Positions 4,404 to 63,296 of a stretch of DNA of 64,000 nucleotides are shown in pieces. The stretch's first letter is position 1. The number at the start of each line of letters is the position of its first letter. The stretch lies in contig OZ234494.1 of assembly GCA_965153455.1 (NCBI GenBank), forward strand, positions 9,052,001 through 9,116,000, written 5' to 3'. A program made the translations under genes and the position numbers. A model generated the notes under the pieces. That model was not told where the DNA came from. It did no database searches and saw only the letters and a program-made list of their open reading frames with translations. Source of the DNA: Sphagnum compactum (lineage: Eukaryota).

Positions 4404-4417
4404 GTGGGCCCATAACC
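4404..4417 (-). promoter_or_regulatory. Primer-binding site complementary to the internal (anticodon-arm) part of initiator tRNA-Met (half-tRNA type)
   Basis: The minus strand reads GGTTATGGGCCCAC directly after the LTR end. This is complementary to GUGGGCCCAUAACC of plant tRNAi-Met rather than to its 3' CCA end. Confidence 0.85.
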
Positions 4418-6170: not shown

Positions 6171-6198
6171 CAGCAAAGGGAGAAAGACTTCCTAGGAC

Positions 6199-9009: not shown

Positions 9010-9190
9010 TCCTGTTTTGACCCCCTCTTTCCTTTTCCCTGAGGGCCTCCACTGCTAGTACATATATTTTCACTGCTCCTACATGTAGGACTACTATAAT
9101 TATTCTTGTAACTCTCTACATAATTAAATGTTGAGTTTCAGCATTTCATACCCCAAATTTAATAAAATTTTCTTACTTTGTGGACCTCAC
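9010..9190 (-). repeat. Inverted paralog of the sequence into which the 15-kb MULE inserted (empty site)
   Basis: Its reverse complement aligns with 28160-28312 (..GTATGAAATGCTGAAACTCA..TAATTATAGTAGTCCT..GCAGTGGAGG..AAAGGAAAGAGGG) and contains a single AGGAAAGAG. Confidence 0.8.
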
Positions 9191-25576: not shown

Positions 25577-25915
25577 GGCCACAGTGAACCAGCACCCACC
25601 AACGCACCATCCACTGGATGGATGCCCGTTATTACTCAGTTGTGGATGAACCTCAACTGAGTTAATATTTGATTTCACCTTAGTAGCCAACTTTGTAAGA
25701 AATAGGTCTCATACATAGGTAAGTAGGTAGGAAAATAGGTAACTACTTGGTAAGGGCTGATTTTACAAGTGGGTTGTCAGTAGGTAGGTAGTAAAAAAAA
25801 GCACTGAGCTAACGACCATGGTTAGCTAGGCAGCTGGAACCCAACAGACAACTGTTTCCTGACCACTTACCATCCATCCTTCATGGTGCACTGTGGGTGT
25901 TGGTTTACTATGGCC
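25577..25915. mobile_element. Non-autonomous MULE (MITE, 339 bp)
   Basis: TIRs GGCCACAGTGAACCAGCACCCACCAACGCACC / GGTGCACTGTGGGTGTTGGTTTACTATGGCC; 9-bp TSD TCAAAATGC (25568-25576) / CCAAAATGC (25916-25924). Confidence 0.8.
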
Positions 25916-26221
25916 CCAAAATGCGTTACCTGTTTGTTGGTTGTACCTAGACAGATGAGACTTTGTATAAGCTTTGGGATACAATTTTAACTTCAACTGG
26001 GAACCAATTTGTGAATGATAAGTATACAAAATAGACTTAGCTGTATTATTTAAGCTGCTTATTTAATCAAATTCACACTAAATTCAAATTACCTAACCAT
26101 GTTATACAATTCTTTCAAGACTTAATTGTACTCTGGAATGTTTTTCTAACCTAATGCATTTTGCATTCAAATTACCTGGTCATGTTATACAATCCCATCA
26201 TCTTCATGATTTTGTTTGAAC

Positions 26222-28041
26222 CAGTGTTGGGTGGTTATCAAAAATAGGAATAGACCAATGTTGGGCTAGCACCTAGTTTTGTGGGTTAGAATCAGTGTTG
26301 GCCAGTTCTCGGTCTTTAGTGGATCTGGAAGGTCTAATTTCTTTTCCAATATGCAAGACCCTTTGATTCGGAGTCTAGGGCATATTTTCAAAATTTAAAA
26401 CTTGTCAAATTCGGGTGTGGGTCCAAAGTTTTAGACTACTGGTTCCGGGTCCAACGGATATAACTTTTATAAGGTCCTGAACCCGGAACCAGTTTTAGTG
26501 TAGTTAGTTCACCAATAAAATGAAGCATGTTCATCAGTTGCTTCCACATCCAAAAGTGAGAGCTTGTTTTAGGATACATAAATAATCATATTTGAGCTAT
26601 GTTTCAATATAGCCATTTGCAAAGTTGCTGAACCTTAAACTCCAACTATATTTCACTACAGCTACCACATTTCTCAAATGTTACTTGCAAATTTTTTTGC
26701 ACCAACCCAAGGACAAAAACTACCAAAATTGTAAGTACATGAAGCATCTAAGATGAAAAAAAAAGACTTGAAACTAGTAACATTTATTCATCTATGCAAC
26801 TGGAGCTCAAATAAAGCAAATCAATAATTTTCTTCTTCAAAAGAAACCCACAATCAAAGATGAGATTTTCATTGTCTTCTAGCAACACATCTCCACTTCA
26901 ATGAAGTCACTCAAAGATGAAACTTTTCCCCTTGGACCAATCAAACTATCTACCCAATCAAAATCAGGGACTAGTCGTTAAATATGATTTGACTATGTTT
27001 ATCAGACTCGTTCCAGGCCTCGTCCTGGGCTCCGAAAGCTGTGGTCATTTTCACGGTCCTAGCAATCTTCCAGTGGTTCACTGGATTCACCCTAATTCCT
27101 ATCTAAACTAGGACCCTGGCCCCTATGACCTGGACCCGGCCAAACATTCTTAAGACCCTATGGGTCCGAGTCTTAGACATGTCTGGTTCCATCTAGACTC
27201 GAAGGGTCTGGTTCCATTGCAGGTCTAGCTCAATTTAAACCCACAGGGTCCAGTTTTATGGCAAGTCTTGCTCCATCTAGACCCATCGGGTCCGGTTCTT
27301 AGGCCCGGACCCAGACCCAAACCCAACCAAACCCGGCCAACATTGGTTGGAACCATCAGTTCCATTTCCAACTAGGAACAACTGAGCCAGGTCCAGTTTT
27401 CAAATTTGGAATTGGAACGATTTTATTCCTTTTTAAGAATTGAAACTGGATTTGATTTTTTTAATAATTGGACCCAAAACAGGAATCAAATTTAAAACAA
27501 TATTTTGCCCTAAAATTGAGTTTCTGATTCTATTACATTGGATCTGGTCTAAGTTAGTGAGAACCACACTAGAACTGGGTCTCATTTTCAGAACTGGAAA
27601 TGCAACCAGAACTGAAGATTTTTTTTCTTTGAAAAATCAGATTCTCAATTTCATTTGTGTGTGGAACTAGAAGCAAAATGGGAACCAAAGGTTTTTCATA
27701 AAAATAAAGAACCACCCAACAGGGGAGTAGACCCGTCCTGGCTATCAAGGTGGTTCCAAGATTCATATCCATGATTCTGAAAGGAAATAAAAAAACTGGT
27801 TCTGATATATAATCACAATCCTCAATATTTTAAATAACATTATAAACCCCACTGGTTCTTTACCGGTTAATTAATTCATGAAAATCATCCATTCTTTGAG
27901 GTTTCAAAATAATAGAAACCAATTGTTCTTTGATTCTGATTTAATTTAAAGCTGGAATTGAGATTCTCTGTTGGTAAAAGATATTTAAAATTTAAAACTG
28001 GCAGTTCTTTATTAATTCAATAAAATAACCACACCACCCTG
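26222..28041. mobile_element. Non-autonomous hAT-like element (outer)
   Basis: TIRs CAGTGTTGGGTGGTTAT / ATAACCACACCACCCTG (14/17 match); flanks GTTTGAAC / GTTTGACA, a degenerate 8-bp TSD; body rich in GAACC/GGTTC motifs. Confidence 0.55.
26293..27345. mobile_element. Non-autonomous hAT-like element nested in 26222-28041
   Basis: TIRs CAGTGTTGGCCAG / CCGGCCAACATTG; 8-bp TSD GTTAGAAT / GTTGGAAC (6/8, both differences are transitions); GGTCC/GGACC subterminal repeats. Confidence 0.6.
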
Positions 28042-28795
28042 GTTTGACATTTGAACCTGCTATGAAAAGGAAAGAGCCGTCGTGCAATAAAGTTATACAG
28101 AAAGTCGCCCTCTCTCACAGAGTTCACCCCATATCCCCTCTTTCAGAGTCAGTGTTATCCCCAAAGAAAGGAAATTTTATTAAATCTCAGTATGAAATGC
28201 TGAAACTCAGCATTTAATGCACAAGGTTGGAGAGTAATTATAGTAGTCCTGCAGGTAGGAGCAATGAAAAGGTATGTAGCAGCAGTGGAGGCGCTCAGGA
28301 AAAAGGAAAGAGGGCTGGAGTGAATTAACAGCCACCAATGCACCAGTTGCGGATGAGCCCGTTGAGGCCATTTTCCGGATGAACGAAAATCCCATCCTCC
28401 CTGCCCGCATATATATATATTTTTCACCTCTTCTCTACCCCAAAATTTTCCCTCCTACCTACGACATACCTCCCCCCTCCTACCTACCATCTACCTCCCC
28501 CCTCCTGCCTACCACCTAACTCTCCCCCTCTTACCTACCACCTACCAACCCCTCCCCCTCACTCCATCGCCAGAGCTCCAGAGACGTTGAGCGGGAGCGA
28601 GCTTGGAGCAGGGGAACCTGGAGCGGGAGCGAGAGCTTGGAGCAGGGGAGCCTAGAGCTGGAGCGTGACCCACGCGAGACCCAGGTAAGCATCTTCCTTT
28701 TGTTTGTTTGTTTGTTTGTTTGTGGAGCTGCGCTGCACAAGATACGCAGCGCAGCTCCACAATGCAACTCTTTGTGTTGCAAGAAAAAAGAAAAA

Positions 28796-30113
28796 GAAGA
28801 AAGCGATGGTAGCAACGTTGACATCGCCTTCTTCTTTTTTGTGCAGCGCAAGAAAAAGAGGAAGAAGAAGGCGACGGCAGCTGCCATTGACTTCTTCTTC
28901 TTCGTGTTGCAAAAAAAAAAAGGAAGGAGAAGGCGACGGCAGCTGCCGTCGCCTTCTTCTTCCTGCTGTGGAGCTGCGCTGCGGCGCAACGTAGCTCCAC
29001 GAAAAAGGCGACGGCAGCTGCCGTCGCCTTCTTCTTCTTCGTGTTGCCAAAAAAAAAAAAAAAGAAGAAGGCGACGGCAGCTGCACAAGATACGCAGCGC
29101 AGCTCCACAATGCAGCTCTTTGTGTTGCAAGAAAAAAAAGAAGAAGAAGGCAATGGCAGCGTTGCTGCCGTCACCTTCTTCTTCTTTGTGTTGCAAGAAA
29201 AAAGAAAAAGAAGAAGGCGATGGCAGCGTTGCTGCCATCGCCTTCTTCTTTTTTGTGCAGCGCAAGAAAAAGAGGAAGAAGAAGGCGACGGTAGTTGCCG
29301 TCGCCTTCTTCTTCATCTTCGTGTTGCAAAATAAAAAAGGAAAAAGAAGGCGACGACAGCTGCCGTCGCCTTCTTCTTCCTGCTGTGGAGCTACGCTGCG
29401 CTGCCGTCGCCTTCTTCTTCTTCGTGTTGCAAAAAAAAAGGAAGAAGAAGGCGACGGCAGCTGTCGCGCCTTCTTCTTCTTCGTGTTGTAAAAAAAAAAG
29501 GAAGAAAATGGCGACGGCAGCTGCCGTCGCCTTCTTCTTCTTCTTTGTGTTGCAAGAAAAAAGATGAAGAAGGCGACGGCAGCTGCTTTCGCCTTCTTCT
29601 TCTTCGTGTTGCAAAAAAAAGAAGGAAGAAGAAGGCAACGGCAGCTGCTGTTGCCTTCTTCTTCCTGCTGTGGAGCTGCGCAGCTCCACGAAGAAGGCGA
29701 CGGCAGCTGTCGTCGCCTTCTTCTGTCTGGTGCGAAGCCGCGTTGTAGCGTAGCTCCACGAAGAAGGCGCATTGGTTTTTTTTTGTTGCTGCGCTGCAGC
29801 ATTGCAGCGCAGTGAAGAAGGCGACGGCAGCCACGCTATCGTTGCCTTTTTTTTTTTCTTGCTGCTGTGCTATAGACGAAGGCAACGGCATCTGCCGTCA
29901 CCTTCCTCTTTTGGTTTTGCTGCGCTGCAGCGCAGCAAAAGAAGGCGCCTTCTTCTTGTAGTTTTGCAACGTAGGAGAATTTATATTGAAGAAGAAGATG
30001 ACGACAGCTGCCAGCACCTTCTTCGATGGCTTTGCTATAAGGAAGTGGTGTCCTCCGCCTTTCTTTTATGGTTTTGCTGCGAAGAAGGTGACGGCAGCAA
30101 TGTCGTCACCTTC
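28796..30113. repeat. Array of ~20 palindromic units, consensus GAAGAAGGCGACGGCAG|CTGCCGTCGCCTTCTTC, with GTGTTGCAAAA-type spacers
   Basis: A 34-bp self-complementary core recurs about every 60-70 bp (e.g. 28861, 28928, 29003, 29210, 29275, 29441, 29501, 29565, 29628, 29690). It lies between a CAG|GTAAGC donor (28685) and a TTTAG acceptor (30201). Confidence 0.9.
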
Positions 30114-30215
30114 CTCTATGGTGGCAATTGTGTTTTTTTTCCTTTATTGTTGCGTATGCTTTAGTTCATTAGAATTAACAAACTGGTGGTTTTTGGTTTA
30201 GGGTTGGAGGTTGTA

Positions 30216-31934
30216 ATGGGTAGGGGAAGAAGATTAAGGAAGAGTGGTGGTGGTGAGTTGGAAGGCAAGAGGCAAGATTATGCTACAGCAGATGAGGCAA
30301 GTCTTTTGCCAAATGTTGCTGTTTCAGATGAGCCGATTCTTCTTTCATATGTTGCTGGAGGAGATGAGGCAAGTGCTGAGCCATTTGTTGCTGCATTAGA
30401 TGTGGCAATTCTTCAGCACAATGTTGCTGCATCAAATGTGGAAGTTATCGAGCAAAATGTTGCTGCATCAAATGTGGAAGTTATGCAGCAAAATGTTGCT
30501 GCATCAAATGCGGGAGGTGCCGAGCAAAATGTTGCTGCATCAAATGCAACAACTGCCCAGCAAAATGTTGCTGCATCAAATGCAGCAACTGCCCAACAAA
30601 ATGCCGCTACATTAAATGAAGCAATTGATGACCGAAGTGTTGCTGCATCAGATGTAACAATTGCTGATGGAAGTGTTGTTGCATCAGATCAGGAAATTGG
30701 TGAGAAAAATTGTGCTCTATCAAAATTGAAACACAAGGATAGCATTGGTATAGATTGTTTTAGAATTTGTGGACATTAGAAGATAGGACATTAGATTAAT
30801 TACAGATTAATAACATTGTACAAGTTTTCTTGAAGTTTAATTATCTCCGCACCTTCCATCATTTGTTGGAAGGTGCGGGAATTTTTTTGTCAAAATTTTT
30901 TTACTGCAATACCTTAAAACAGTTCATGTTTATAGGAGTAGTATGTGATTTTGTGATTTGATGTTTTGCAATACCTGCATTCTGTTTTTTGAACTTTCAG
31001 TTTTTGGGTTTAGGTTTGGAACTGGAAACTGAGCAAGCTTCTCAACCACTTGCACTTGTTTGTCCAGCTAATTTGGCTCAAAAGGATAAGGAATGGACAA
31101 AGGTTGGGTCTAAATGGAAGTGCAGAGTCGGTAATTGCACTGTGGCATATTGTGCAAAATTGCTATTGACCAAGCATCTGAAGGAGGCGCATGGTTTGGT
31201 GGCAGAAAAGTCCAAACCTGGGAGGCTTTCAACTGCTACAGGAGGTCCTCGACATCAGGACCATGCCAAGATGAACGCTCGCATTTTGGGAAATGCGATG
31301 GCTGTTCAAAGGAGGAATGACCAGAAAGTTGCTAGTCGTGCTCGTGCCAAAGTAGAGCGCGAGTGGAATCACCTGGTGGCTATTGCAAAACAGTGTCCAC
31401 CACTGCCAAAACCTGCTTTGGTTAGATTAGCCCAAGAATAATTGTTGAAGGTTTTAGGCCTCAATGCTTGGGGCGTGGGCAGTGTGGCGCCAGATGCAAT
31501 TGTACGAATGGAGAAGGATGAAGACTTATAGGGGACGATCCGATCCACCCGTTGTGCATATGCACGAGAATTAAAGATGGCATGGGATGTGAAGAACTGA
31601 GAGTGAGAGTCCAGTAAAACATCTCGAAAAAAACAGCTGGGAGATGTTTTGGATTTTCATGAATCTAGAATGATTCATGGAAGGTAAGAAACAATAATAA
31701 GTAATGTTTATTGTTTTTTATTGTATTTCATCCAAGGTGTGTTTAGGGTTAATTTTGTGATTTTTGGGTGTTTACAGGGTGCAGGACCAGACAAAGGCCC
31801 AGTTTGTTACAAATGCAATTCAAGTAGAGATGCAACGCCGGCATTTGTACACTGCTCGTCATGCAGCAAAGGCTGCAAATGCAGTAGCTGCATACCGCGC
31901 TAAACACAGGATTGTAGATAGTGATATGTGTTAG
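30216..31934 (+). pseudogene. MULE accessory gene: ~436-aa protein with 12-aa repeats and one C2H2 zinc finger; 4 in-frame stops
   Basis: Predicted exons 30216-30699, 31014-31683 and 31778-31934 with GT-AG introns and consistent phases (1311 nt). C2H2 motif CRVGNCTVAYCAKLLLTKHLKEAH. Stops TAA 31439, TAG 31529, TGA 31598 and TGA 31604; no frameshift needed. Confidence 0.7.
30414..30699 (+). repeat. 36-bp coding tandem repeat (~8 units, xQNVAASNxxxx)
   Basis: AATGTTGCTGCATCAAATG recurs with a 36-nt period (30421, 30457, ...). Confidence 0.85.
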
Positions 31935-32339
31935 GGTTTCACTTTATATAATTAATTAGGTTTTGTAACCCTTTCATTTTTTGGACTACCCAATTTTGAA
32001 CTTCAATCCTTTGATATGTTATAGAGAACCAACACTTTTTTTTCAATAGGTTCTTTAGTAATTTTTCATGCACCCATTTTTGTACATCTTTTATCAATAT
32101 AATAGTACCTTCTATTCACACTTGTTGATGGGTATATGGTTAATCATATATGTCTTCTTTGTCATAATTTTTTTAGTACTAGAGATGTAAGAATCAAACC
32201 AAAGATCAAAATGAACATTATGCAATACTTATATCTAATATAATACGACTCACATCACCTGAAGACTTTTTAAACAATCCACACATTTTAAACATATAAT
32301 ACCTACATCATTCTCTATTATGAACTCCATTTTCAAAAA

Positions 32340-32625
32340 TGCAATACCCACATATAGGTCCAAAATAGCCATATGCATTTTGCATTCGTTGCAATACCCG
32401 CATATAGGTCCCATAATAGCCACTGGGTTTATAAACATTCCTTGCAATACCCGCATATAGGTCCCAAAAATTGCTGATAGTCTTCATTCCTTGCAATACC
32501 CGCATATAGGTCCCATAATAGCCACTGGGTTTTTTAAACATTCCTTGCAATACCCGCATATAGTTCCCATATAACCCCTGGGTTTTTTTCCATCTCTTGC
32601 AATACTCGCATGTAGGTCCCATAAT
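32340..32625. repeat. ~50-54-bp tandem repeat (6 units) with core GCAATACCCGCATATAGGTCCC
   Basis: GCAATAC starts at about 32341, 32391, 32444, 32493, 32547 and 32599. Confidence 0.85.
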
Positions 32626-34465
32626 AGGTGCTGGTTTTTACATTCACTATGAAACTTACATTTTGTAATAAAATTAATTTAGAATAATAATTAATTTTGG
32701 GTATATAAAAAGACATAATTTTGGTACCCAGGCCACTTTTGAAATGACATTACATGCGAGTATTGCATTGAGGGTTTAGGGTCTTCACATATGGTTTCCT
32801 TCAATCACCTATGTATTATTTCAATATGATCTTGCATGTAGGTATTTTATCTAGGCCTTGATCTTCATTCAAAGGCGCACCCAAACTACATATTGGGTAT
32901 TTCAAAGCGACCTTACATGTGGGTATTACATTTAAGGTTGCCCTTTCATTGTAGGTTTTACCTTATTCACCTATGGGTTATTTTCAAATAAACATGAATA
33001 TGGCTATTGCATTTAGGGTTAAGGTTTCATATAATTTTGCAATATCCACACACATACTTACTTTCACCATTTGTAAATTTAGCCATAATGTTTAATAATT
33101 AAATAAAATTTGTGACAAAACACAAAAGAAGGTATGTCTTTTACCATTTGTTAATATCCAAGCTGATCTCTTTCAATTTCTTTAAAAATATGTATTGCAT
33201 TTTTTTACATATAAAATTCCCCCTATAATGCACCGTAGATTTATTTTATTTACTATTAATTTGTAAAAAAATTGTTAATTAATTTAGGGTTTCCCAAACT
33301 CTAAATTTGAATCATACTCCAATAGTATATACTTATAACAATTATATGGAAAAATGTGCTTTCTTTTTGATAAATTCTTTTAGTTCAAATTTAAAATGTT
33401 ATAACACAATAAGGATTAGACATTAAACTATCATAAATGCTTATTAGGCTTACGTCGCCTAGGCTAGTATATTACCTATATGACTAGTAGGTTTACTTAA
33501 TGCATTCAATCACCTTCAATACCTACATAGACCATCTAAGATATTAATTTAGAAAGCTTACATTAATGAATAAATTACATAATAGGCCTATATTAAGTAG
33601 GTAGCCTATCAGGTAGTTAATTAGGTTACTTAACAAATAGCTATATTTGTAGGGATTAGGGTTTTAGGGTTTACCCAACCCTAACCTATGAAAACCCAAC
33701 CCTAAACCTTAAAATATTATATGTATTGATTTGAATCAACAGTATAATTCCATAATATCATTATTTATATATTAGGTGTTATAAATAACAATATATTTGG
33801 ACCAATATTTAAACCAATATTATACATCATAAAAAATAAAGTTTACATAAGGACTTGTGTTATATATCTATAAAATATAAAATATTTTTGACCCACTATA
33901 TGAATATTTTAACCAAGAAATTATTTACTATATATCAGAAAAGTATAAATTAAAATTTCAATTAAACATAGGATTAATATATGGGAGAGATCATTTTTAT
34001 TATTATGTGAAACAGAAAAGAAGAAAGTAGAAAATTACGTGCTTTGAATTTTTTTTAAACATAATTTAAAATCTTGTTAAATTAAAGACTTTATATTTAT
34101 GTTTTTAGTATGAATATACAACTTTAAAAGGGGAAAAAAAATATGAACATCGTTGAAAAATATTTAAGCTTGAACTTTTTATTTTTTGATCTTGACAAAC
34201 TTTGTATTGCATTTAGGGTTGGGTTTTCACATAAGGTTTGTTTTTTACCTTTGTGTGATAACTCCAACCTAATTTTCCCAATCTCTTTTAGGAAGATATA
34301 GAATGAAATTGTATTGTTTCACATATGTCTAAACCCTAAAACATTTCGGCCAATTTAATATAAAATATTTATGATAATTAATGAATTATCAATAAAATTT
34401 GTCATATAATTAAATAATTAATAGACCATTATTTTAGATAATTTAAATGATTAATTATGAAGAAT

Positions 34466-35580
34466 TAGATAATCATTTATTTATTTAATATAATTAACTA
34501 ATCATTTGGCTTAAATTTATTTACTTGAAAATAAAAAGTTGGATTTAATCAGATTAATTAATTTGATATTTGATTAACTAACTTTAGTATACATTTTTTT
34601 TAATAAGTTATTGGAATCACTATTTAAGATAATTATTCCATGTTATAGATTGCAAGTTCAACTTTTTCATGAAAATTTCTTACACTAAAATAAGCTTGAT
34701 CACAATTGTCATTGTACTATTTGTTCCACAAACAATAGAACCTCTTTTAAAATTCATGAAAAAAAATAAGAATCATGGATTCCTAATCAACAACCCCAAC
34801 CTCCATACACACCTTTGTTAGCATATGATTTTGAAATTAACTAATTATTTTAGAATGACCCAAAATGCAGGTATTGCATTTAGGGTAGGATCTTCATTTA
34901 AAGAAGGCTTAAACCCCACATGCATATTTTTTGTGTGACCCAAAGTGCAGGTATTGCATTTAGGGTAGGATCTTCATATAAAGATGCTTAAACCCACATG
35001 GGTACTTTCGAAATGGCCTAAAATGCAGGTATTGCATTTAGGGTAAGGTTTTTTCAAAGTGACTTTGCGTCTGCATATTGTGTTTAGGGCTAGGTCTTCA
35101 CTTAAGGGTATCCAAACCTTTTAGATGGGTTTTTTTTTTAAACGTGTGGGTATTGCATTTAGGCTTGTTTTTCATTTAAACTTGCAATACCTGAACTTAT
35201 ACTTACCTCTACTAACTGGAATGTTGGGGTTTCATTGCAATACCTACATCCGTACTTACCTTTACAAACTGGAATTTTGGGGCATGATTGCAATACTTGC
35301 AATTGTACTTACTTTTACCAACTGGGATTTTGGGGCCTAGTTACAATACCTGCATCTAACACTAATATTATCATTATCCTTGTGTTTTTGCATTTCACAC
35401 TTTTTGTGCTTATTACTTGGAAACAATAATAACCTTTGTGCCATATTAGACTTCATGTGTGTGTTGAATACATGATGTTCAAATAATTTGGGGTATGATT
35501 TCCTCCATACAAAATTGATTCTAAAAGAAAATTTTTAGTGCTAATGGCAACAATCTTGATTAGTAATTGAAACATTTATT
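34466..35580 (+). repeat. ~1.1-kb segment repeated directly at 40901-42169 (partial third copy ~40390-40860)
   Basis: Both copies start TAGATAATCATTTATTTATTT, contain the 79-bp array and the TTTTACCAACTGG block, and end GTAATTGA(A/G)ACATTTATT. Confidence 0.85.
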
Positions 35581-38273
35581 CATGACATCGTTTAGTACGT
35601 ACATTTGTGTGATTGAGCATTGTTTCATGCCAATCTTTGAGCCGTTTGACACTATTTCCCAATCCATCTTCTACACGACGTAACACCAATCCTGGGTGTG
35701 AAATTGCATTTGCCTTTGTGAGGCGTATGTTACGAATATTACATGCCAATACTCTCATGTGTGAGGTGGCATGTTCACAAAGTGTCACATCGCCTTCTTT
35801 ACATTCATTTGTGATCTCTTGCATTGTAGTGACCAATTGTGCAAGAGCCCTTTCCATTGGGGTTGATGAATTTATTGTCTCATTAGACCCTACAATGGCA
35901 CCCATAGGGAGATCATTTTGCTCCATGTTCATGAGCCCATCAAATTTCATGATCCCATCATCACCTTCAAGATGATCATCTTCGTCATCATCACTGGACT
36001 CCATATCATCTGGAATATGTTGCGGGTCTGCAAACATGTGACCCAACCCTCCACGATGTGATCCATACCATGTTCCACAGTAATGAATGATATCCTCTTG
36101 AGAAATGTCTGTGCATGTGAGAATGACCTTAATTTGGTGTTTACACATGTTCCCTCGCAATGCCCATTCGCATGTGCAACAAAACATTTCGGTGAATGGG
36201 AATTTCACCGTGTAAATAACATTGGGAAGGCGTTGGCTCCGTACGGCCCAAGCTCCATCACTCTCAAGGGTTGGTTGGTACACATGGCTGAGTGGAATAA
36301 GGGTTGCCTTTTCCACACTTCGTGTAATAATGGCCTCCATAACCTTGTTTTTTATGAAACCCCTCTTTTTCATTTCCAATGTGTGCATGTAGTGGTGTGC
36401 AATGGTTGTTGTTAATCGCCACACCAACCAGTCAATCCTACGCCCTCTAAGGCCTTTTGTGTCAAGAGCAAGCCAACGTTTCAATGCACCATGATATGAT
36501 TCAATGCTCGCTTGGGTGTCTTGGTTGGAATGGGGCACTTTTCGAACACCCACCATCCATAATTCTACAAACATAAACACAATACATAAGGATGAATAAC
36601 ATTATACAAAATAATTTTGAATGCTGAACCATGATAAATATTATCACTTACCAAATTGATGGTAATAAGTCCAGAAATAGTTTGTCCACGCATCACCAGG
36701 CCTATGTTTATGAAGGCTTTCTCTCACAGCAACCCTCCCACGCTCTTTGAAGTCATCAATTGTTTCTCCATGATTGATGGACATGTACATCACATCATGA
36801 AGGTCTTGGAGGATTCCACCCCGCACTTCCACATCTTTGATTTTTTCAATACCACGTAGGCGCCATGCTTTGAGAACATGCCAACAACAAAGGTAGATGG
36901 GAACCTTGTCCATACCCCATACGACCCTAATAAGGACACATATGCAATAAAATCTCCATGAGTGGATGGGGTTAGTACAACATAAAATGCATTTGAAGTA
37001 ATCAAGAATTTTATGAAAGATATTAAAAAACATTTAAGGAAATAAACACACAAAGTCGATACTAGGTATAGAACTAACCGTAATGCCTTCAATTCTTGAG
37101 GTGCATCATCAACGAGAAAACATGATGGTTTCCAATGCGGCATGTGTGATAACATCTTCTCTTTTAATGGTTTCAACCATTCGATCAAATCTTGCACTGT
37201 TTGCCTACTTGTAATGATCCAGGCTAAAGGGACACCCGTGCGATGATCATCAAATCCCATCAAGGTGAATAGATGGAATTTCATGTCATTTGTGCCAAAT
37301 GTTGCATCCATAGAAATGGCACCATTGTGACCATATGATAGCATGGACTCACATTGAGTTGGTGTTTGAATACCTATGGTGAATGGGACTTGAGTTCCGT
37401 TCATTTCACCAACATCTTGGAAAAAGAACACATCTTCTGGATGTTGGAGAGCCCAAGACCGAATTGAAATTGCAGGGTTAGTGTGTAAACGCTAACTCCC
37501 TTTCTTATGTTTCCGATCCAAACATGCAATGTCTTGAAGCCGAATGAAATCATCTCGTGTCATGCTTTGACCCGCATTCACACGTTCCCACCAAATTGCT
37601 TTATGCTTGTCATATATTTGTTTGGTCGTATAACCTAAGCTTAGTTGGGCCCATATGTGATCTTTCAATGCTTGTGACATGCGTGGAGCATAACGAGACA
37701 TACGAGAAATGGACTCTGGGTCATGCTCACCATGTGCGAATGACCCATCAATTCGTGTATGGGCCTTATGATAAATTGTGATCTCAGCCACATCAGGTCG
37801 TGTGTATAGACGTTTGATTGAGAATGACGCTAGGCATCCTTGTTTAATAGATCGAATGTGGGTTGAATTTTCTCGATAGTCCTCTGGTCCATATGCGCAT
37901 TGATACCTAAACCAAAAAACTTTCAAAACGTAAATTATTACATCTTTGGTATATGAAATAAAGAAATTAAAAAGGTTAATGCCATAAATGTTTACCATGT
38001 ATGCCCGAGGTGGTTTTTGATAGTTGGTCGCTTGACATCCGTTTGGCTTGGAAAGTTTTTGTAAACACTCCATTCCACAGGGGTGCTCGTATCCCCTCGT
38101 TCACCTTCCAAGAATTCGGAGATGCGAGCATATGGAACATAAACAAATTGAATGGTCACTTTATTTTGCCCTCCATGGCGTATCCCAGATGTCCACACCA
38201 AGTCTTTGTTTGAGAAAGGGGACTTGATGGGGTTTTGGACATGAATGGAATGGGACTTTGGAACCCTTGGCAT
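35576..38273 (-). pseudogene. MULE transposase with SWIM zinc finger (AT4G13970/AT1G60560-like), ~789 aa, 4 exons, single nonsense mutation
   Basis: Exons 38273-37996, 37906-37079, 36926-36652 and 36564-35576 (GT-AG, 2370 nt, in frame). N-terminal YQCAYGPED..KQGC..YHKAH; catalytic ISMDATFGTN, FLVDD, CCWH and IESYHGALK; SWIM CTCEWALRGNMCKH. TAG at 37492-37494 (probably from TGG). Confidence 0.9.
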
Positions 38274-38592
38274 GATTGAAAGAAGTAGGACAAATTCCTG
38301 CATCAAGAAAATTTATAATTCTCTAAGCATTCATCATTGAACAAAAACCCAAAATGCAATACATACATGGCTCCTTTAAAATCAATGTTGTTACTTGGAA
38401 TTCCCATTACAACACCCATATCATGATATAAAAAACCTACTATTCCAATGTACATAACGTACAATACTTGCATTATGAACCCATATACTAAAACAAACTT
38501 TGGCAATACCCACATTGAGCTATTAAACCTCCCATCATTGAAAATTTTCTCATATGCAATACCCGTATTGTACCTTAAACCCATAATGTTTG

Positions 38593-39838
38593 AAAACCCC
38601 ATGTAGCAATACCCACATAATGATAGTTAATGCACACTGTTTGAGAGGTGCAAAATGCAATACCTACCTTAAGCCATAAAACCCACACTGGTTGTGGGTA
38701 GTCAATGCATTATTCGCATATGGGTATGAAAAAATAAACTACAAAGAAATATTGAATATGAAATATCCATGTAAAAGTATAAAACCTTTATCTATGCTTG
38801 TATACTTAATGAAACTTGATGCCCTTTCTATATCCAACAACTAGGAAATGAAAAGAGTTTGAATTATGAAAATATAAACAAAAAAACAAAAGAAGTAACA
38901 AGAGACAAATGCATACCTTTAAGAATAAAAGATGACAACGGTCCACCAAAGTTTAAAGTCCCAATTGAAAACGCAACCCTAAAAAATCATAACTCGTACA
39001 AAAATGGGTTAAAAAATATTAAACTCTAGGAACTATGGAACATATGGAAACAAAGGAAATTCAAATTATGGTATAGATCTAAACAAGTGAAAAGATCAAA
39101 AAGCAATACAATGAGCAAAATTTAAAGTATAAACCTTAGGTTTTGAAATATATGAACCAAATTCTTATACACTAAATAATAAAGCATAACCTTAAAAATC
39201 CAAATGATATTTTGCAAAACGCCATGTAGCAATACCCACATAATGATAATTAATGCACACTGTTTGAAAGGTGCAAAATGCAATACCTGCCTTAAGCCAT
39301 AAAACCCACACTGGTTGTGGGTAGTCAATGCATTATCCGCATATGGGTATGAAAAAATAAACTACAAAGAAATATTGAATATGAAATATCCATGTAAAAG
39401 TATAAAACCTTTATCTATGCTTGTATACTTAATGAAACTTGATGCCTTTTCTATATCCAACAACTAGGAAATGAAAAGAGGTTGAATTGTGAAAATATAA
39501 GCAAAAAAACAAAAGAAGTAACAAGAGACAAATGCATACCTTTAAGAATAAAAGATGACAACGTTCCACCAAAGTTTATAGTCCCAATTGAAAACGCAAC
39601 CCTAAAAAATCATAACTCGTACAAAAATGGGTTAGAAAATATTAAACTCTAGGAACTATGGAACATATGGAAACAAAGGAAATTCAAATTATGGTATAGA
39701 TTTAAACAAGTGAAAAGATCAAAATCCAATACAATGAGCAAAATTTAGAGTATAAACCTTAAGTTCTAAAATATATGAACCAAATTCTTATACACTAAAT
39801 AATAAAGCATAACCTTAAAAATCCAAATGATATTTTGC
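38593..39838 (+). repeat. Tandem duplication of ~623 bp upstream of the transposase
   Basis: ATGTAGCAATACCCACATAATGATA at 38601 and 39224; both copies end AATGATATTTTGC (39215 / 39838). Confidence 0.9.
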
Positions 39839-41299
39839 CATAAGCCTTATTACAACCCTAATTATACAAACCCTAACAAAAAAAAGTCTTAGTGATATAT
39901 GTCCTAAACCCAAAAAACTATACAAACTATACAAATTATATAATGCAAAATACGTTAATCTTTAAAAACAATCAAATAAATTTCATACAAAACCAAAAGA
40001 GAAGATATGTCTCCAACTTAATTTTTGTGTGATCTCTCCAACTTAATTTTTTCCACTCTTTTTGAAGAAGATATAGAATGCAATTGTATTACTTCACATA
40101 TGTGTAAACCCTAAAATTTTCCCCCCAAATTTAGCCTACTTTAGATTAATTACTATACATTTGTGAAAAACTTATTAATTAATTTATGTGTCTCAACCCT
40201 AAACCTAATGGTTAAGTTAGTAGGGTATGTAATTAATAGAGTAATTAGGTTAGTAGGGTAGGTGGTTAGTACAATAGCTAAGTCAGTAGGATAACTAGTT
40301 ATTAGGGTAGCTGTGTCAGTAGGGGATAATAAATAAGGTACCAAGGTTGGTGCAATACTTATGAGGGTAGGAAAGTGAGCAGGGTAGCTATTCGGAATGA
40401 CCCCAAATGCAGGTATTGCATTTAGGGTGGGATCTTCATATAAAGAACCCTAAACCCCACATGCGTACTTTCGGAGTGACCCTAAATGCAGGTATTGCAT
40501 TTAGGGTAAGATCTTCGTATAAAGATGCTTAAACCCACATGCGTACTTTCGAAATGGCCCGAAATGCAGGTATTGCATTTAGGGTAAGGTTTTTTCAAAG
40601 TGACTTTGCGTCTGCATATTGTGTTTAGGGCTAGGTCTTCACTTAAGGGTATCCAAACCATTTAAATGGGTTTTTTTGAAACGTGGGTATTACATTTAGG
40701 TTTGTTTTTTCATTTCAACTTGAAATACCCAAACTTATACTTACCTTTACCAACTAGAATTTTGGGGTTTCGTTGCAATACCTACACCCGTACTTACTTT
40801 TACCAACTGGAATTTTGGGGCATAATTTCAATACTTGCACTTGTACTTATTTTTACCAAACCCTAACAAAAAAAAGTCTTAGTGATATATGCCCTACACA
40901 TTAGATAATCATTTATTTATTTGGAATAATCAACTTATCATTTGGCTTAATTTTATTTACTTGGATAATAAAAAGTTGGATCTAAAAATCAGATTGATTA
41001 ATTTGAGATTTGATTAATTAACTTAAGTATATTTTTATTTTAATAAGTTATTGAAATCACTATTTAAGATAATTATTCCATGTTATAGATTGTAAGTTTA
41101 GTTTTTTCATGAAAAATTCCTACACCAAGATAAGCTTGATCACAATTGTCATTGTATTATTTGATCCACAAACAATACAACCTCTTTTCAAATTCATGAA
41201 AAGAAGTAAGAATCATGGAATTCCTAATCAACAACCCTAACCTCTATACACACCTTTGTTAGCATATTAATTTGAAATTAACTAACTATTTTTGTGTGC

Positions 41300-41650
41300 C
41301 CCAAAATGCAGGTATTGCATTTAGGGTAGGATCTTCATATAAAGAAGCTTAAACCCTACATGCGTCCTTTCGGAGTGGCCCAAAATGCAGGTATTGCATT
41401 TAGGGTAGGATTTTCGTATAAAGATGCTTAAACCCCACATGCGTATTTTTTGTGTGGCCCAAAATGCAAGTATTGCATTTAGGGTAGGATCTTCATATAA
41501 AGAAGCTTAAACCCTACATGTGTCCTTTCGGAGTGGCCCAAATTGCAGGTATTGCATTTAGGGTAGGATCTTCATATAAAGAAAGCTTAAACCCTACATG
41601 CGTCCTTTCGGAGTGGCCCAAATTGCAGGTATTGCATTTAGGGTTGGGTT
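41300..41650 (+). repeat. 79-80-bp tandem repeat (5 units); sister arrays at 34860-35050, 40400-40590 and 42800-43080
   Basis: Unit CCCAAAATGCAGGTATTGCATTTAGGGTAGGATCTTCATATAAAGAAGCTTAAACCCTACATGCG...; (G/A)GTATTGCAT at 41311, 41390, 41469, 41548 and 41628. Confidence 0.9.
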
Positions 41651-44233
41651 ATTTCAAAATGATTTTGCATGTGCATATTGTGTTTAGGGCTAGGTCTTCA
41701 CTTAAAGGTATCCAAACCATTTAGATGGGTTTTTTTGAAACGTGGGTATTGCATTTAGGCTTGTTTTTTCATTTCAACTTGAAATACCCAAACTTATATT
41801 TACCTCTACCAACTGGAATTTTGGGGTTTCGTTGCAATACCTACACCCGTACTTACTTTTACCAACTGGAATTTTGGGGTATTACTTGCACTTGTATTTA
41901 CTTTTATCAACTGGGATTTTGGGGCCTAATTATAATACTTGCATTTAACACTAATATTATCATTATCCTTGTGTTTTTGCATTTCACACTTTTTGTGTTT
42001 ATTACTTGGAAACAATAATAAGCTTTGTGCCATATTAGACTTCATGTGTGTGTTGAATACATGATGTTCAAAGAATTTGGGCTATGGTTTCCTCCATACA
42101 AAATTGATTCTAAAACAAAAAATTTAGTGCCAATGGCAACAATCTTGATTAGTAATTGAGACATTTATTAAAGTAAAATATCAGTTTTGAAATATATGAA
42201 CCAAATTCCTATACATTAAATCATAAAGCATAACCTTACAAATCCAAATGATATTTTGACATAAGGCTTATTACAACCCTAATTATACAAACCCTAACAA
42301 AAAGAAAATTTAGTGATATATGCCCTAAACCCAAAAAACTATACAAACTATACAAATCATATAATGCAAAATAAACAAATTTAAAAGAATATAGGAAAAA
42401 AATTAGAAACCAAAATTCAAAGGTTTTAAATTATAAATATTTATTAACTGAAAGAAAATACGTTAATCTTTAAAAATAATCAAATAAATTTCGTACAAAA
42501 CCAAAAAAGAAGATATGTCTTTTACATTTGTGTGATTTTTCCAACCTAATTTTTCCACTCTTTTTGAAGAAGGTATAAAATGCAATTGTATTACTTCACA
42601 TGTGTGTAAACCCTAAAAATTTCCCCCCAAATTTAGCTTACTTTAAATTAATTACTATACATTTATGGAAAACTTATCAATTAATTTATGTGTCTCAACC
42701 CTAAACCTAATGGTTAAGTTAGTAGGGTATGTAATTAATAGAGTAGCTAGGTTAGTAGGGTAGGTGGTTAGTACAGTAGCTTGGTTAGTGGTGTGACCCA
42801 AAATGTAAGTATTGCATTTAGGGTATGATCTTTGTATAAAGAAATGCTTAAACCACACATGCGTACTTTCGAAATGGCCCAAAATGCAGGTATTGCATTT
42901 AGGGTAGGATATTTGTATAAAGAAAGCTTGAACCCCACATGCGTACTTTCGAAATGGCCCAAAATGCAGGTATTGCATTTAGGGTAGGATCTTTATATAA
43001 AGAAAGCTTGAACCCCACATGCGTACTTTCGAAATGGCCCAAAATGCAGGTATTGCATTTAGGGTAGGGTTTTTAGGGTAGGGTATGTAATTAATAGGGT
43101 AGTTAGGTTAGTAGGGTAGGTGGTGAGTACAGTAGCTAGGTAGAAAAGTGAACAGGGTAGAAAAGTGAGGAAGGTAGCTATGTGTGAGGTCAGGTCCAGG
43201 GAAAAACGAGCAAGAACCAAAAAAAAAAAGTACAATGGTCAGCAGCAAAAAGAAATGGACTGTCATGAACCCCATCCGGCGCCGAATGAAAAAACGCAAC
43301 CCATCCAGTGGACAGAACGGCCAACTGGTGCATTGGTGGCTGTTAATTCACTCTGGCCAGGAAAGAGGGGACGAAACTCCGTTTACCACCAATATTGGTG
43401 GAGAAACTAGTTTGGTCCCAGTTATTTCGTTTTTGTAAAATTTCATTCCCAATTATGCATTTGATGCCCTATTATGCCGAAACTGACCGTTCTCGCTCCC
43501 TTAATCTGACTTTACAGATAACTTTAATGAGCCACTTGTTATAAGATCTCACATCTGATAGGTTTTTTGAATACCCAATGATGCTGGTCAATAATTAATC
43601 AATCAATTAGAAACAACTACTTGTAGGTCTTTATCACGTTTTAAACATAATTAATGCCCAATTAAGCAAACAGGTGGATTGATTGATCACTCTTCCATGA
43701 CTGCTCTGCAGATAACCGTTTAGAGCAGTTACATCTTTTATCTGGATAGGTATACCTGATGGGTTAAAACTTTAAAAAACTGGTTAATTATGTATCAGAT
43801 CCCATATGGGGATGATGCACCCCCTCAAATTAGCATGTGCCAATGAATGCTTACCGGGCAGAATTGGTCGTTCATGGCCCAATTAATTGACATTAAGGTC
43901 TGGGTTCGCAGACTATGTCATTTTCTTGATCACATTATCTGATATAGTGTTCGAGTGAGGATCTAGGCTCAGCCCCAGACATAAATGTCTCGAGTTGGCC
44001 TTGCCTTGCCCATTATATCGGATATGTCACCTAGTTTGCATTATCCGACTTGCTAATTTCTTTACCCAACATAACAAGCAGTGTTTAACCAGGGTTTAAC
44101 CATTCTATAGAATGTTAAAAGCAAAGGGAATGCTCAGCCAGAATAAGCACCACATTCCAATCAAGATAATAGTCCTTCCCTTGCTTTCAAGGGTCACTGA
44201 CCTTGTGCCAAATGGTGAGAGTATGGAGCAATG

Positions 44234-56719: not shown

Positions 56720-57400
56720 GACCTCAAATGGGGGAGGGGTTTGTTTTTCTCTACCTCTTATGTAAAGGATTCTGAAGGCAGATTCTGCCACTTTCTAGAA
56801 ATCTTGGATTTCATAAATGACGATTTTGACTGGTTCTACAAAGAACAGCTAGAGTGCTATTTTATTAGCAGAATCTTCCATTAAAAAGCCGTTACACCAT
56901 GGGAAACGCCCCTAGGGTGTATTCTGTGCCCTTGTAAGCATTTAATGTGAGGCCCAGGGTTCCAGCCTCAAAGGAAGGGGGTGTTCTCTTCTTTACTAAT
57001 TATGTAAAGGATTTTGAAGGTAGATTGTGCGACTTGTTAGAAATCTTAGATTACAAAATTGGTACCTCCTCAAAGGAAGGGCGGATTTTGAGGGACATGA
57101 AATTTCTTCAAATACAACTAGAGTGCTATTCTTTTTAACAGAATCTTCCCTTAAAAAGCCTTTACACCAGGGAAACCGTCTTTAGAGAGTATTCTGCACC
57201 ATTGTAAGCATTGAAGGTGAGGCCCAGTGATTTTGAAGGTAGATTCTGCCACTTGTGTGAAATCTTCTATTGCAGAATCGGGACCTCCTCAAAAGGAAGT
57301 GCCGATTTCAAGAGATGTGCAATTTTTCAAAAATCAACTAAAGTGATATTTCTAAAACGGAATCTCCTCTTACGAATCGTTAACGCAATGTAAAGCGTTC
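56720..57400 (+). repeat. Three degenerate tandem copies of a ~240-270-bp unit upstream of the ROMO1 gene
   Basis: GATT(C/T)TGAAGG(C/T)AGATT(C/G)TG at about 56768, 57010 and 57229; AACAGCTAGAGTGCTATT / AATCTTCC..TTAAAAAGCC blocks are repeated. Confidence 0.7.
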
Positions 57401-60690: not shown

Positions 60691-61174
60691 CGCTCTCAAG
60701 TGTGCACAGTAGCAGTTGGCGCCTTCTTCTTCTTCTTCTTCTGTCTTCGCACACTTGCGCGGCGGTACCTGTCAATTGCAATCGACCGCAGAAGACGAGT
60801 CTGAGATAATCGTGGCGACGACTCACTCTCGCGGCGGCGGTATTTTGCCGTTTTTGCGACTGCCAGGAGGAGTAGTATTAGGGAAGCTGCTGGTTCTTGG
60901 CGACGATTGCATTGCTGCGGGGGTGACAGCTTTGGAGAGTAAGGTTTGCAGACAGGTCTTGGAGGATCTTGATCTGTTCAGCAAGCAGGGAACAAGAATA
61001 GGAGGTGGTGGCAGTGGTGGTATTATTGTTATTGTTCAGTTGAGCTTTTTGTTGCACAACCGCTTTGCTGCTGCTGCCGCGGAGCAAGTTTTGTGCTTGT
61101 AGGTTGTTGTGCGGATGCCCTGTGACAACTCGGGTTTGTGATTGTCGAGTGGGCCCGGTTTGTCTTCTGTCGGC

Positions 61175-61801
61175 ATGATGAAAGCTAATAAGCAGTACTT
61201 GGAGAAGGCGGTGGACGCCAACAACGATAAGGAGCGGCCTGAGTCTGACGACGAGGGAGGAGACTCCGAAGAAGAAGAGGAGGAAGAGGAGGAGGAGGGG
61301 GAGGAGGAGGAGGAAGAAGAAGATGTGGATGATGCTAACGGCCATGGCCTTGATGTGAATGGTAACCACCAAGGCGTTAGGGACTCCAAGGTGATTGTGC
61401 TTGAAGATGATGATGAGGAGGAAGAGGAAGAAGACGAAGGCGAAGGGGAAGAAGAAAGAGATGACGATGGAGAAGAAAACGAGGATTCGGACGATGAGGA
61501 AGACGACGACGACGGTGGGAGCTACCATCGAGAGGAAGTCGTAGTGGCGGCTGCTCATGTCAGAGGAGGAGGGACTGCCACCACTGGCGTCAACAACAAC
61601 ATACATGGCTCCGAGGATGACGAGGTTGAAGACGATGACGAAGACGATGTGGAGGTGCAGGACATAGAAGAGGAGAGCGACGACGACGAGGCTGGTGGAG
61701 AAGACGAAGAAGAAGAAGAAGAAGACGAAGAGGAGGCCGTTGGTGATGACGAAGAGGACGACGAAGGTGAGAGCCTCCTCCTCCCTCCTCTCCTTAAGAG
61801 T

Positions 61802-61857
<56 letters not shown>

Positions 61858-63296
61858 CGTTCTTGTTCAGAAAAAAAAATTCCTCCTCTTTTGTTGGCCT
61901 GAAAGAACACACTGCTGGATCATCATCATAGTAGGTTTGAGGTTTTAGAGGCTTGCGGCGGCACTATCATTTTGCAAGCTTCTGTAAAGTCCTTCTGTTG
62001 CCACAAGAATCCTTGTTTTCTTTTTCAGACCTGCAGCCTTCGTTTTTTCACTTTGCAGAGCATCCGAGCGGCGCGGTTGTCAGCACAGAGGGAGAACTTG
62101 ATGTTCAAGAACATGATGAAAACGAGGAAGATGAGAACGGAGAGCTTGGAGAAGATGAAGAAGACGAAGCAGAAGACGATGAGGTGGAGGATGACGACGA
62201 CGAAGATGACGCTGGGAAAGACGAGGTATAATAAGAGACACACCACCCTTCTTCTTTTATGGCCTACCTCCTTCGCTTGTGGGTTTTATATATGGGTTCT
62301 GTTCTCAAGGACATATGCAGACTGTGAATACCTTGTTGGAGAGACGCTCTTTTTTCCCTGAACTTCACATGAACAACAACCTGGTGCTCTGTTCAGCTTG
62401 TGCAGCAGATGTACTGACTTTTGTTGCTGATAGAGTTTCCTCCTGATTGTGGTGTTCAATCCATTTTGCTGTCTACTTCCTTTGCCTGGTAGTTCAACAG
62501 GAGAGAGATGTAAGAGGTCTAGAAGGGTTGTGGGAAGGGAAGTCTTGAGGAGGAGAGTAGTAGCAGGGTTTCATGTAGAGACCATATAAATTACATGCCA
62601 GATGGGGTTTCCAAGGGCTTCCAGCTGTGGCAGCTTGCTACTGTTGTTGTGCTCACTTCCATACCACTAGTGTAAGAGTTTGTGGGAAGTAACAAGAAGG
62701 CATGTAAAGAAAGTCTTCCCTTTTTGATCCTGCAATCCTGCTTCTAATCTGAAGTTTTGAAGCATGGGTGGTGACTGCTGTTGCCTGAACTCCTGGGGTT
62801 GTTGGTTTACAAAACGCTGGCACGGTCTCGCTGATATTTCATGTTATAATACCCAAAGTTACATTGGGAGGGTGCATGCAGATTTTTGCAGATTGGTCTA
62901 TCTGATGACTGTCACAACTCCAGACTTTTCCACATCTCAGTCCTGTTAGATGCTGTGTTTGAGGCAGAGTTTTAGCTAGTTGGTAGTGGCTCCTTTGTGT
63001 GTGTGTGACATGCGGTTGTCAAATCTGACCTATACCCCTGCCTGTCTCTGTGTGTGTTGCAGGAGGATGAAGAGGACTATGGCACAGAGTATCTGGTGCA
63101 ACCTGTGCAGCCAGAAGATGATGAAGGAGCCAGTGACTTTGAACCAGGTGAAGGTGACAATGAGGATGATGAGGATGAGTTTGAAGATGAAGAGGAGGAT
63201 GTTGTTGAGGAGGCTGTTAAAGAACCCATGTTGGTCAAGGGGAAACGGAGTAGAGAGGAGGATGAGGAAAAAGAGGGACGGCCACTGAAACGGTAA
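61175..63296 (+). CDS. Highly acidic nuclear protein related to the C-terminal part of plant ANP32 (LRR domain absent), ~330 aa
   Basis: Exons 61175-61766, 62059-62225 and 63063-63292/63296 (GT-AG, phases fit). Motifs QYLEK..DKERPESDDE, DVEVQDIEEESDD, VSTEGELD, DYGTEYLVQPV..GASDFEP and basic tail KGKRSR..RPLKR. CG|GTAAGT at 63293 may be a further donor. In-frame TGA at 61139 precedes the ATG. Confidence 0.8.
61805..61852 (+). repeat. (GA)n microsatellite in intron; others at 63323-63362 and 59308-59322
   Basis: Direct reading of the sequence. Confidence 0.95.

Follow-up and report, generated by a model that had tools for sequence, protein, structure and literature searches.

Sequence-specific anti-silencing by transposon-encoded proteins is established for VANC of Arabidopsis (PMC5735166) and for TnpA of Spm (bioRxiv 2026.08.24.746577). 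We analyzed a 64,000-nucleotide stretch of the moss Sphagnum compactum (contig OZ234494.1, positions 9,052,001 to 9,116,000; the window), in which a 15-kb Mutator element carries, beside its transposase gene, a second gene (gene 2) encoding a C2H2 zinc-finger protein, and in which the noncoding DNA of the element is crowded with the short motif GTATTGC. Judged by analogy, the layout is closest to VANDAL/VANC in how it would work, with a MuDR-like gene order. A preliminary sequence-only reading had proposed a two-component system of finger protein and motif arrays; the multicopy open reading frame (ORF), the selection on it, and the enrichment of the motif all held up, whereas the motif reader and an effect on methylation stand as predictions.

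Like VANDAL21/VANC21 and VANDAL6/VANC6, the moss element is a Mutator-like element (MULE) with an accessory gene, and as in VANDAL elements the motif is dense in introns and in intergenic and subterminal noncoding DNA, lies mostly in one orientation, and forms tandem repeats (PMC5735166). Related clades are about two bases apart in both systems (AGTATTAC and AGTTGTCC in VANDAL, GGTATTGC and GGTATAAC in the moss), and the variable tandem peptide repeats of VANC (PMC5735166) have a counterpart in the 12-aa repeats of exon 1 of moss gene 2. GTATT-C is common to GGTATTGC and the VANC21 target AGTATTAC, and GGTATTAC is a frequent variant in the moss elements; the resemblance between the two targets is probably a coincidence. 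There are also differences. VANC carries DUF1985/DUF287 and is reported to be MAIN-like and to dimerize by a coiled coil (bioRxiv 2024.04.02.587720), whereas gene 2 encodes a C2H2 finger and an unmatched helical domain; the terminal inverted repeats (TIRs) of VANDAL elements are absent or degenerate, whereas those of the moss element are clear; and the VANC motif is private to one family, whereas the moss motif is common to four family groups, with family-biased bases upstream of it. Binding and demethylation have been shown for VANC (PMC5735166) and are predictions for the moss protein.

Maize MuDR likewise has two convergent genes between TIRs, a 9-bp target-site duplication (TSD), recombinant combinations of transposase and second gene, and many copies in which the second gene alone is intact (PMC10401008, PMC6446971), but its TIRs measure 150–250 bp against a core of ∼35–45 bp in the moss, and the available parts of these two sources describe no internal selected motif arrays for it. 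No MURB is named among the gene-2 homologues listed, the comparison with MURB being one of homologue names. Element-encoded, sequence-specific regulation via clustered family-specific motifs, as described for Spm TnpA and AtMu1c (bioRxiv 10.64898/2026.08.24.746577), has an apparent parallel in the moss. However, TnpA belongs to a CACTA element and acts at its termini, whereas the moss motif lies inside the element and not in the TIRs, and AtMu1c, unlike the moss element, lacks an accessory gene and has its binding sites at the TIRs. Other second-ORF MULEs are Spectre of aphids, whose second ORF is a C2H2 zinc finger, and Mutyl of yeast, whose mutB has a DNA-binding role (PMC6446971); they have different hosts, the available part of that source mentions no motif arrays for them, and they are compared with the moss element by description only.

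The second gene of a moss MULE clade

The element is a MULE because a MULE transposase domain (PF10551, E 4e-9, above cut-off), TIRs, and a TSD of 9 bp (GAAAGAGGG at 28306 and 43361; 8–11 bp is the MULE range) are all present. It extends from 28315 to 43360, wider than the span of 30216–43080 first given for it. The match between its two ends is limited to ∼35–45 bp; clear TIRs were found in this element and in nine other copies. As the sequence-only reading had recognized, a spliced C2H2 gene on the + strand converges on the transposase gene on the − strand. Gene 2 has three exons and 436 codons. Its first exon most likely ends at 30699, as indicated by a joint in RNA contigs and by an annotated Sphagnum protein (P0231), and measures 136–448 nt among intact copies. 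Both genes are broken in the window copy, and because of the premature stops (four in exon 2 of gene 2, a single one at codon 231 of the transposase) this copy is dead, though still readable.

When exon 2 was searched against the 382-Mb genome and 150 of 574 candidates were scored, gene 2 proved to be multicopy, the 150 scored copies being 55–99% identical. The concern that the ORF might be a capture unique to one copy was thus not borne out, and a one-off capture from the host is ruled out by these copies together with the purifying selection described below. Nineteen copies were examined, and a complete ORF with canonical splice sites was present in 8 of the 13 with a parsable exon 1; four of these eight accompany a transposase and four do not. 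In a further copy (L031) gene 2 is open, but its splice acceptor is altered. Three of nine other transposase copies checked (L046, L048, and L098) are intact, with no premature stop, and in L048 both genes are intact.

The convergent layout is also found in families whose gene-2 proteins are only 35–49% identical. When the same 19 close gene-2 copies were followed for 8.5 kb downstream, nine had a near-identical convergent transposase, nine reached the right TIR without one, and one did neither; pieces of a convergent transposase accompany 12 of 20 further gene-2 matches, two of which are close copies. Copies without a transposase appear to have arisen by deletion between the blocks of direct repeats that flank it (34464–35580 and 40395–42169), with several different breakpoints. 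Because subfamily F1 differs from F0/F2 by 8–14% on the gene-2 side (exon, intron, and 3′ DNA alike) and by 1.1–3.8% on the transposase side, modules have probably been exchanged by recombination between subfamilies, as reported for mudrA and mudrB modules in maize (PMC10401008).

For analysis of selection, 88 exon-2 matches of at least 170 residues were reduced to 51 distinct sequences, and the Nei-Gojobori method was applied to three subfamily consensuses (n = 20, 11, and 5). The ratio of nonsynonymous to synonymous divergence (dN/dS) between consensuses was 0.225, 0.159, and 0.154 (dS 0.27–0.41), whereas changes from consensus to copy gave ∼0.5 and included 18 stops, a baseline that probably falls below 1 through transition bias and the sampling of top-scoring copies. 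The contrast was significant in all three linked comparisons (Fisher p = 0.017, 0.0002, and 0.0001). Against distant families, synonymous differences were saturated (pS 0.76–0.84) and nonsynonymous differences were fewer (pN 0.38–0.47), with 53–62% of nonsynonymous sites kept. The comparisons indicate that gene 2 is under purifying selection between subfamilies (dN/dS 0.15–0.23) and do not fit the neutral evolution raised at the outset as grounds for rejecting it.

Gene 2 is spliced and transcribed in relatives. In a polyA run (X11), 71 reads lay on an intact copy (L002) in one orientation throughout, with almost no depth in either intron; the strand of the first mates is gene-2 sense if the library is of the dUTP type. 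RNA-library contigs (X3 and X4, apparently one data set) have joints that fit both introns. We conclude that this moss MULE clade has long carried a second gene.

Members of the protein family have the pattern W-x5-6-C-x4-5-C-x12-H-x3-4-H, followed by a K-x-GRP stretch, QDH..MN, a long helix, and LG..WGVG. The finger matches those of TFIIIA and GLI (E 1e-5 and 3e-5), Pfam zf-C2H2 weakly matches 7 of 35 members, and only zinc-finger families recur in the family alignment (A1). For the three window exons no Pfam family was found at E 0.1, the VANC domains DUF1985/DUF287 (MAIN-like) included. An AlphaFold2 model of exon 2 (predicted local distance difference test 86, predicted template modeling score 0.53) has a 33-residue helix at 94–126. 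With the exon modeled whole, Foldseek gave no match at E 0.001 in pdb, and the best VIA hit against pdb_via_wide (Z 5.1) was confined to the long helix; the model thus suggests a helical domain without a matched fold, which does not imply a new one. A homodimer prediction for exon 2 returned no answer (score 0.00) and is evidence neither way.

Homologues are numerous. The 50%-cluster library gave 274 matches, the best 150 spanning 26–86% identity, and none of 10 cluster matches looked up had an informative name; those with a species name are all unnamed products of Sphagnum balticum and S. jensenii. The first ESM Atlas match (0.91) belongs to an unnamed cluster, with a recognition score below threshold, and serves as a lead only. 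A metagenome scan with a more distant homologue (P0114) confirmed nothing, a homologue search with the clade-H segment (see below) returned one protein, and the more distant lineages (P0060, P0083, P0114, P0118, and P0130) come without genomic context. No longer or fused form was found among 1001 candidates of 392–2000 aa, which is weak evidence. No description of the gene-2 family was found in the literature searched (mostly open-access main texts), and within the searches made the protein family is undescribed, even under the rival explanations weighed below.

A selectively conserved motif and its variant in clade H

GTATTGC occurs 56 times in the window against 6.95 ± 2.48 expected, a count reached by none of 100 shuffles, and 43 of these sites fall within 30216–43080, in line with the dozens first claimed for the element. 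The array units described earlier were recovered (50–54-bp units at 32340–32645; 79–80-bp units at 34854, 40391, 41296, and 42797), as were five scattered copies in the region of ∼38350–38670 (at 38356–38663) and the saturated arm of a sister element (10 sites; see the table). By contrast, the scattered copies placed at 32750–33050 came down to one exact site (32760), the others being variants such as GTATTAC, GTATTAT, and GCTATTGC. None of the 43 sites lies within the 3775 nt of coding DNA, and none was found in the TIRs or the 1.9-kb left arm (none in 28315–30905 or beyond 43056).

The motif is concentrated in these elements. Its density per 10 kb was 23.4 in families F0–2, 17.8 in F3, 20.6 in F4, and 33.3 in G, whereas 120 kb of control DNA gave 0.83, so that the k-mer comparison proposed earlier came out at ∼20–40-fold above genome background. 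Arbitrary stretches held 7 sites in 84 kb, and the DNA near six MULE domains of another type was at background (3 in 36 kb). Genome-wide, close pairs of GGTATTGCA numbered 1012, against 6 for the reversed pattern. An unbiased 7-mer ranking of 18 divergent loci placed GTATTGC first or second in 10 and fourth or fifth in 4; it was weak or not enriched in L091, L092, L102, and L103. The noncoding DNA of L107 and L053 is unalignable to that of the window element, with which L096, L097, L109, and L124 have only short noncoding stretches in common.

At 10 homologous sites across subfamily consensuses, the 7-mer window of the motif showed 2 differences in 140 positions, against 11–33 in 140 for windows shifted by at least 3, and the contrast held after CG/CHG positions were dropped from the control (p = 0.007 and 0.037, values that are generous because the window copy served to define the sites, several of which come from one tandem array). 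The conserved core is GTATTGCA, usually with RG before it, and the bases upstream are family-biased (ATGYRG in F0–F3, (T)RARG in G and F4). Every family checked, clade H included, has 2–5 sites just upstream of gene-2 exon 2. Spacings between sites peak at 50–54 and 79–80 nt in F0–F3; because they are scattered in F4 and G, helical phasing is not claimed. Taken together, the comparisons identify the motif as a dense, noncoding, selectively conserved footprint. Two further observations concern its distribution. The third transposase intron, 87 bp and motif-free in the window, is ∼400 bp in family F3 and holds 3–4 sites there (L096:6170-6590, L097:3505-3880, and L100:6072-6512). One locus with a divergent transposase (L124, G000:C17:13915900-13925899) has 20 sites, in a flavor resembling that of the transposase-less L107/L109, and no gene-2 match in the 6.7 kb downstream.

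A deep clade, H, has a different motif. In its seven genomic loci (L091, L092, and L148–L152), which are old copies with transposases 33–52% identical, GTATTGC is at background, and AGGTATAAC, picked after inspection of these loci, occurs 7 times in their 65 kb against none in 434 kb of other groups and controls. Five metagenome H loci found by protein alone, a convergent transposase being visible in three, contain 2 GTATTGC and 15 GTATAAC in 26.7 kb. Four H elements have 36 GTATAA where ∼6 are expected, and 32 of the 36 run antisense to gene 2; the positions of the antisense sites, shortly before exon 2 and in the intergenic DNA, match those in the window. The density is lower than that of GTATTGC in its own families, and genome-wide TTAGGTATAACA is not enriched overall (54 against 163 for the reversed control, with 4 in H loci and 1 adjoining L148). 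The finger helix has the pattern Y-K-[YH]-Q-N-H-[FL] in H, against Y-x-[AVT]-K-[WY]-[LN]-L in the families with GTATTGC.

The window also contains a miniature inverted-repeat transposable element (MITE) whose TIRs are nearly identical to those of family G and similar to those of the window element. It is high-copy (2749 candidates in the genome, 40 of them scored); neither GTATTGC nor GTATAAC occurs in any of 20 copies fetched, about half of which are flanked by a 7–13-bp duplication. Because a MITE with clade-type TIRs has spread without the motif, the sequence evidence favors gene control over cutting and pasting as the role of the motif.

Features of the window

Features of the window element and its relatives (positions in the window)
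Positions	Strand	Feature	Remarks
4882–6173	+	Family-G sister element: right arm and TIR	10 motif sites (4944–5813)
25577–25916		340-bp MITE with clade-type TIRs	9-bp TSD CAAAATGCG; motif-free
28306–28314		Left TSD GAAAGAGGG, 9 bp	Identical 9-mer at 43361–43369
28315–28349	+	Left TIR, ∼35-bp core	Seemingly 4 nt short relative to right TIR; GTATTGC-free
28730–30110		Left-arm array upstream of gene 2, CpG-rich palindromic ∼62-bp units	GTATTGC-free
30216–30699	+	Gene 2 exon 1	Basic N-terminus followed by 12-aa (36-nt) acidic/Ala-rich repeats, variable in number
30700–31013	+	Gene 2 intron 1	Two − strand GTATTGC sites (30906, 30968)
31014–31683	+	Gene 2 exon 2	Single C2H2 finger, K-x-GRP, QDH..MN, 33-residue helix, LG..WGVG helical domain
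31778–31934	+	Gene 2 exon 3: basic Ala-rich C-terminus, stop	Identical join in P0236; intron-2 joint in RNA contigs
32222–32766	−	Motif array 3′ of gene 2, 50–54-bp units	7 sites on −, 1 on +
34464–35580		Direct-repeat block 3′ of transposase, 79-bp and 53-bp motif units	Partner 40395–42169
35576–38273	−	MULE transposase, 789 codons, 4 exons (38273–37996, 37906–37079, 36926–36652, 36564–35576)	PF10551
38356–39286	−	Motif sites upstream of transposase	Partly inside a 623-bp tandem duplication
40352–43056	+	Right-arm motif arrays, 79–80-bp units at 40391, 41296, and 42797	In duplicated blocks
43320–43360	−	Right TIR	GTATTGC-free
43361–43369		Right TSD	Identical to left 9-mer

The family-G sister element is cut by a Copia-type long terminal repeat (LTR) retrotransposon (window 1–4881 and L147:9366-10000, − strand, frameshifted), one of whose LTRs lies at 4417–4881; the two LTRs are 92% alike. 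Just left of the window, past this insertion, lies the family-G gene-2 homologue, 34% identical. Six of nine other G copies have a homologue in the equivalent place by tblastn or profile (seven with weak profile matches), with no transposase before the TIR. Family elements also nest or adjoin one another: L047 (G000:C8:1410900-1420899) has two right arms head to head, and L106 has two gene-2 copies facing each other.

The window element was inserted into a repeat (28100–28314), of which a related, uninterrupted, inverted copy lies at ∼9020–9200 (88% over 84 nt) and contains the target 9-mer once. The palindromic CpG-rich units of the left arm are also present in L105 and L032, and the array could form hairpins or act as a promoter region. 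Elsewhere in the window are a degenerate 42-bp tandem repeat (27153–27297), three spaced copies of a 65-bp unit (56768–57293), and a long acidic (E/D-rich) open frame (61142–62361) that is probably part of a host gene.

Candidate readers of the motif

We think there is about an even chance that the finger protein reads the motif and thereby keeps its own element expressed. Its targets would be the motif clusters in the intron of its own gene, in the intergenic DNA, and ahead of the transposase gene, and it would work in trans on every member of the family, among them copies that lack a transposase but still encode the finger protein; the transposase would bind the TIRs. Less firmly, the effect may be transcriptional activation or local relief of DNA methylation, by analogy with VANC and TnpA. 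On this reading the protein is expected to prefer GGTATTGCA over GGTATAACA or scrambled DNA. The fuller proposal is tentative, and we would sooner expect some part of it to fail than the whole to hold: that this is an independent bryophyte anti-silencing system, in which a MULE-encoded C2H2 family binds clustered GTATTGCA (GTATAAC in the deep clade), the finger helix sets specificity, and silencing of cognate elements is relieved in trans, transposase-less helpers included. The two-component idea survives all computational tests run, and the case is stronger than for a plain two-gene MULE on account of the footprint, of the motif specific to each clade, and of the MITE that lacks it.

Several points nonetheless weigh against the finger protein as reader. 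One finger normally reads 3–4 bases, fewer than the 8-base footprint. The motif is constant across families whose gene-2 proteins are only 35–49% identical, whereas VANC motifs change between close families (PMC5735166); because at least four families have the motif in common despite such divergence, specificity would evolve more slowly than it does in VANDALs. A Mutator transposase needs no partner to bind a motif and remove methylation from its elements, though in that case the binding is at TIRs (bioRxiv 2026.08.24.746577). Only 3 of 16 transposase matches have gene 2 within 8.5 kb, a fraction biased low because these were chosen as not already linked to gene-2 matches; two of them (L112 and L117) have a full transposase through to the left TIR and lack gene 2. 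The X11 reads are all less than 95% alike to the copy they cover and so come from relatives, and the comparison had no silent control stretch. The H copies are old and few, L153–L156 are 95–99% alike, the H motif was first picked from related genome loci, and GTATAAC is nearly as dense in family G (1.74 per 10 kb) as in genomic H stretches (2.15). Finally, the gene-2 and transposase trees both separate clade H (support 0.999 and 1.0); because the motif switch appears to be a single evolutionary event followed by both protein trees, it cannot name the reader.

The alternative that survives best, though we judge it unlikely, is that the motif is read by the zinc domain at the N-terminus of the transposase, which would thereby activate its own elements or strip their methylation, with gene 2 as a mudrB-like insertion helper that does not read the motif. 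No accessory protein is needed for the AtMu1c transposase to bind a motif and cause hypomethylation (bioRxiv 2026.08.24.746577), the motif switch is followed by the transposase tree no less than by the gene-2 tree, and maize MuDR (PMC10401008) has a convergent layout, swapped modules, and copies with the second gene only, as the moss elements do. However, neither TIR nor any part of the 1.9-kb left arm contains the motif, nor does any of 20 MITE copies, AtMu1 peaks in chromatin immunoprecipitation sit at TIRs (bioRxiv 2026.08.24.746577), and it is the conserved C2H2 finger of gene 2 that has a different helix in the two motif clades.

The constancy of the motif over deeply diverged proteins, as for a slowly changing factor, and the clustering of sites in introns and upstream of the transposase would both fit a host transcription or chromatin factor that the elements recruit through gained sites, with a separate role for gene 2. 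We consider this distinctly improbable: the sister clade in the same genome uses another word at equivalent positions, which would call for a second host factor, and away from these elements, including at the six other-type MULE domains, the motif is at background density. Still more doubtful is that the gene-2 protein, although bound to the motif, serves to repress or limit dose, or to scaffold the transposition complex on full-length elements, rather than to counter silencing. The sites just upstream of exon 2 fit a feedback loop, and many transposase-less copies keep gene 2 intact, but there are also arrays on either side of the transposase, multiplied by tandem duplication in the manner of VANC targets (PMC5735166), and the MITE moved without the motif, contrary to a required scaffold. 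Even though most window sites lie in a few amplified units (45 of 167 F1 sites in one context), so that they are not independent, and a motif without CpG mutates more slowly, a neutral by-product of tandem duplication unrelated to gene 2 is very improbable and largely refuted by the sharp footprint, which survives removal of CG/CHG positions from the control, and by the rank of the motif as top or near-top 7-mer in families with noncoding DNA unalignable to the window.

The proposal that the finger protein reads the motif is unusually testable, given intact copies, an 8-base predicted site, and a natural two-base variant paired with a different finger helix; because of this pairing, a finger swap could read out specificity. 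If the proposal is true, a small protein able to lift silencing where a short motif is clustered would be a possible epigenome-editing tool. It would also represent a third solution to sequence-specific anti-silencing, reached in a moss with an unrelated protein, and would mean that this strategy evolves repeatedly across land plants.

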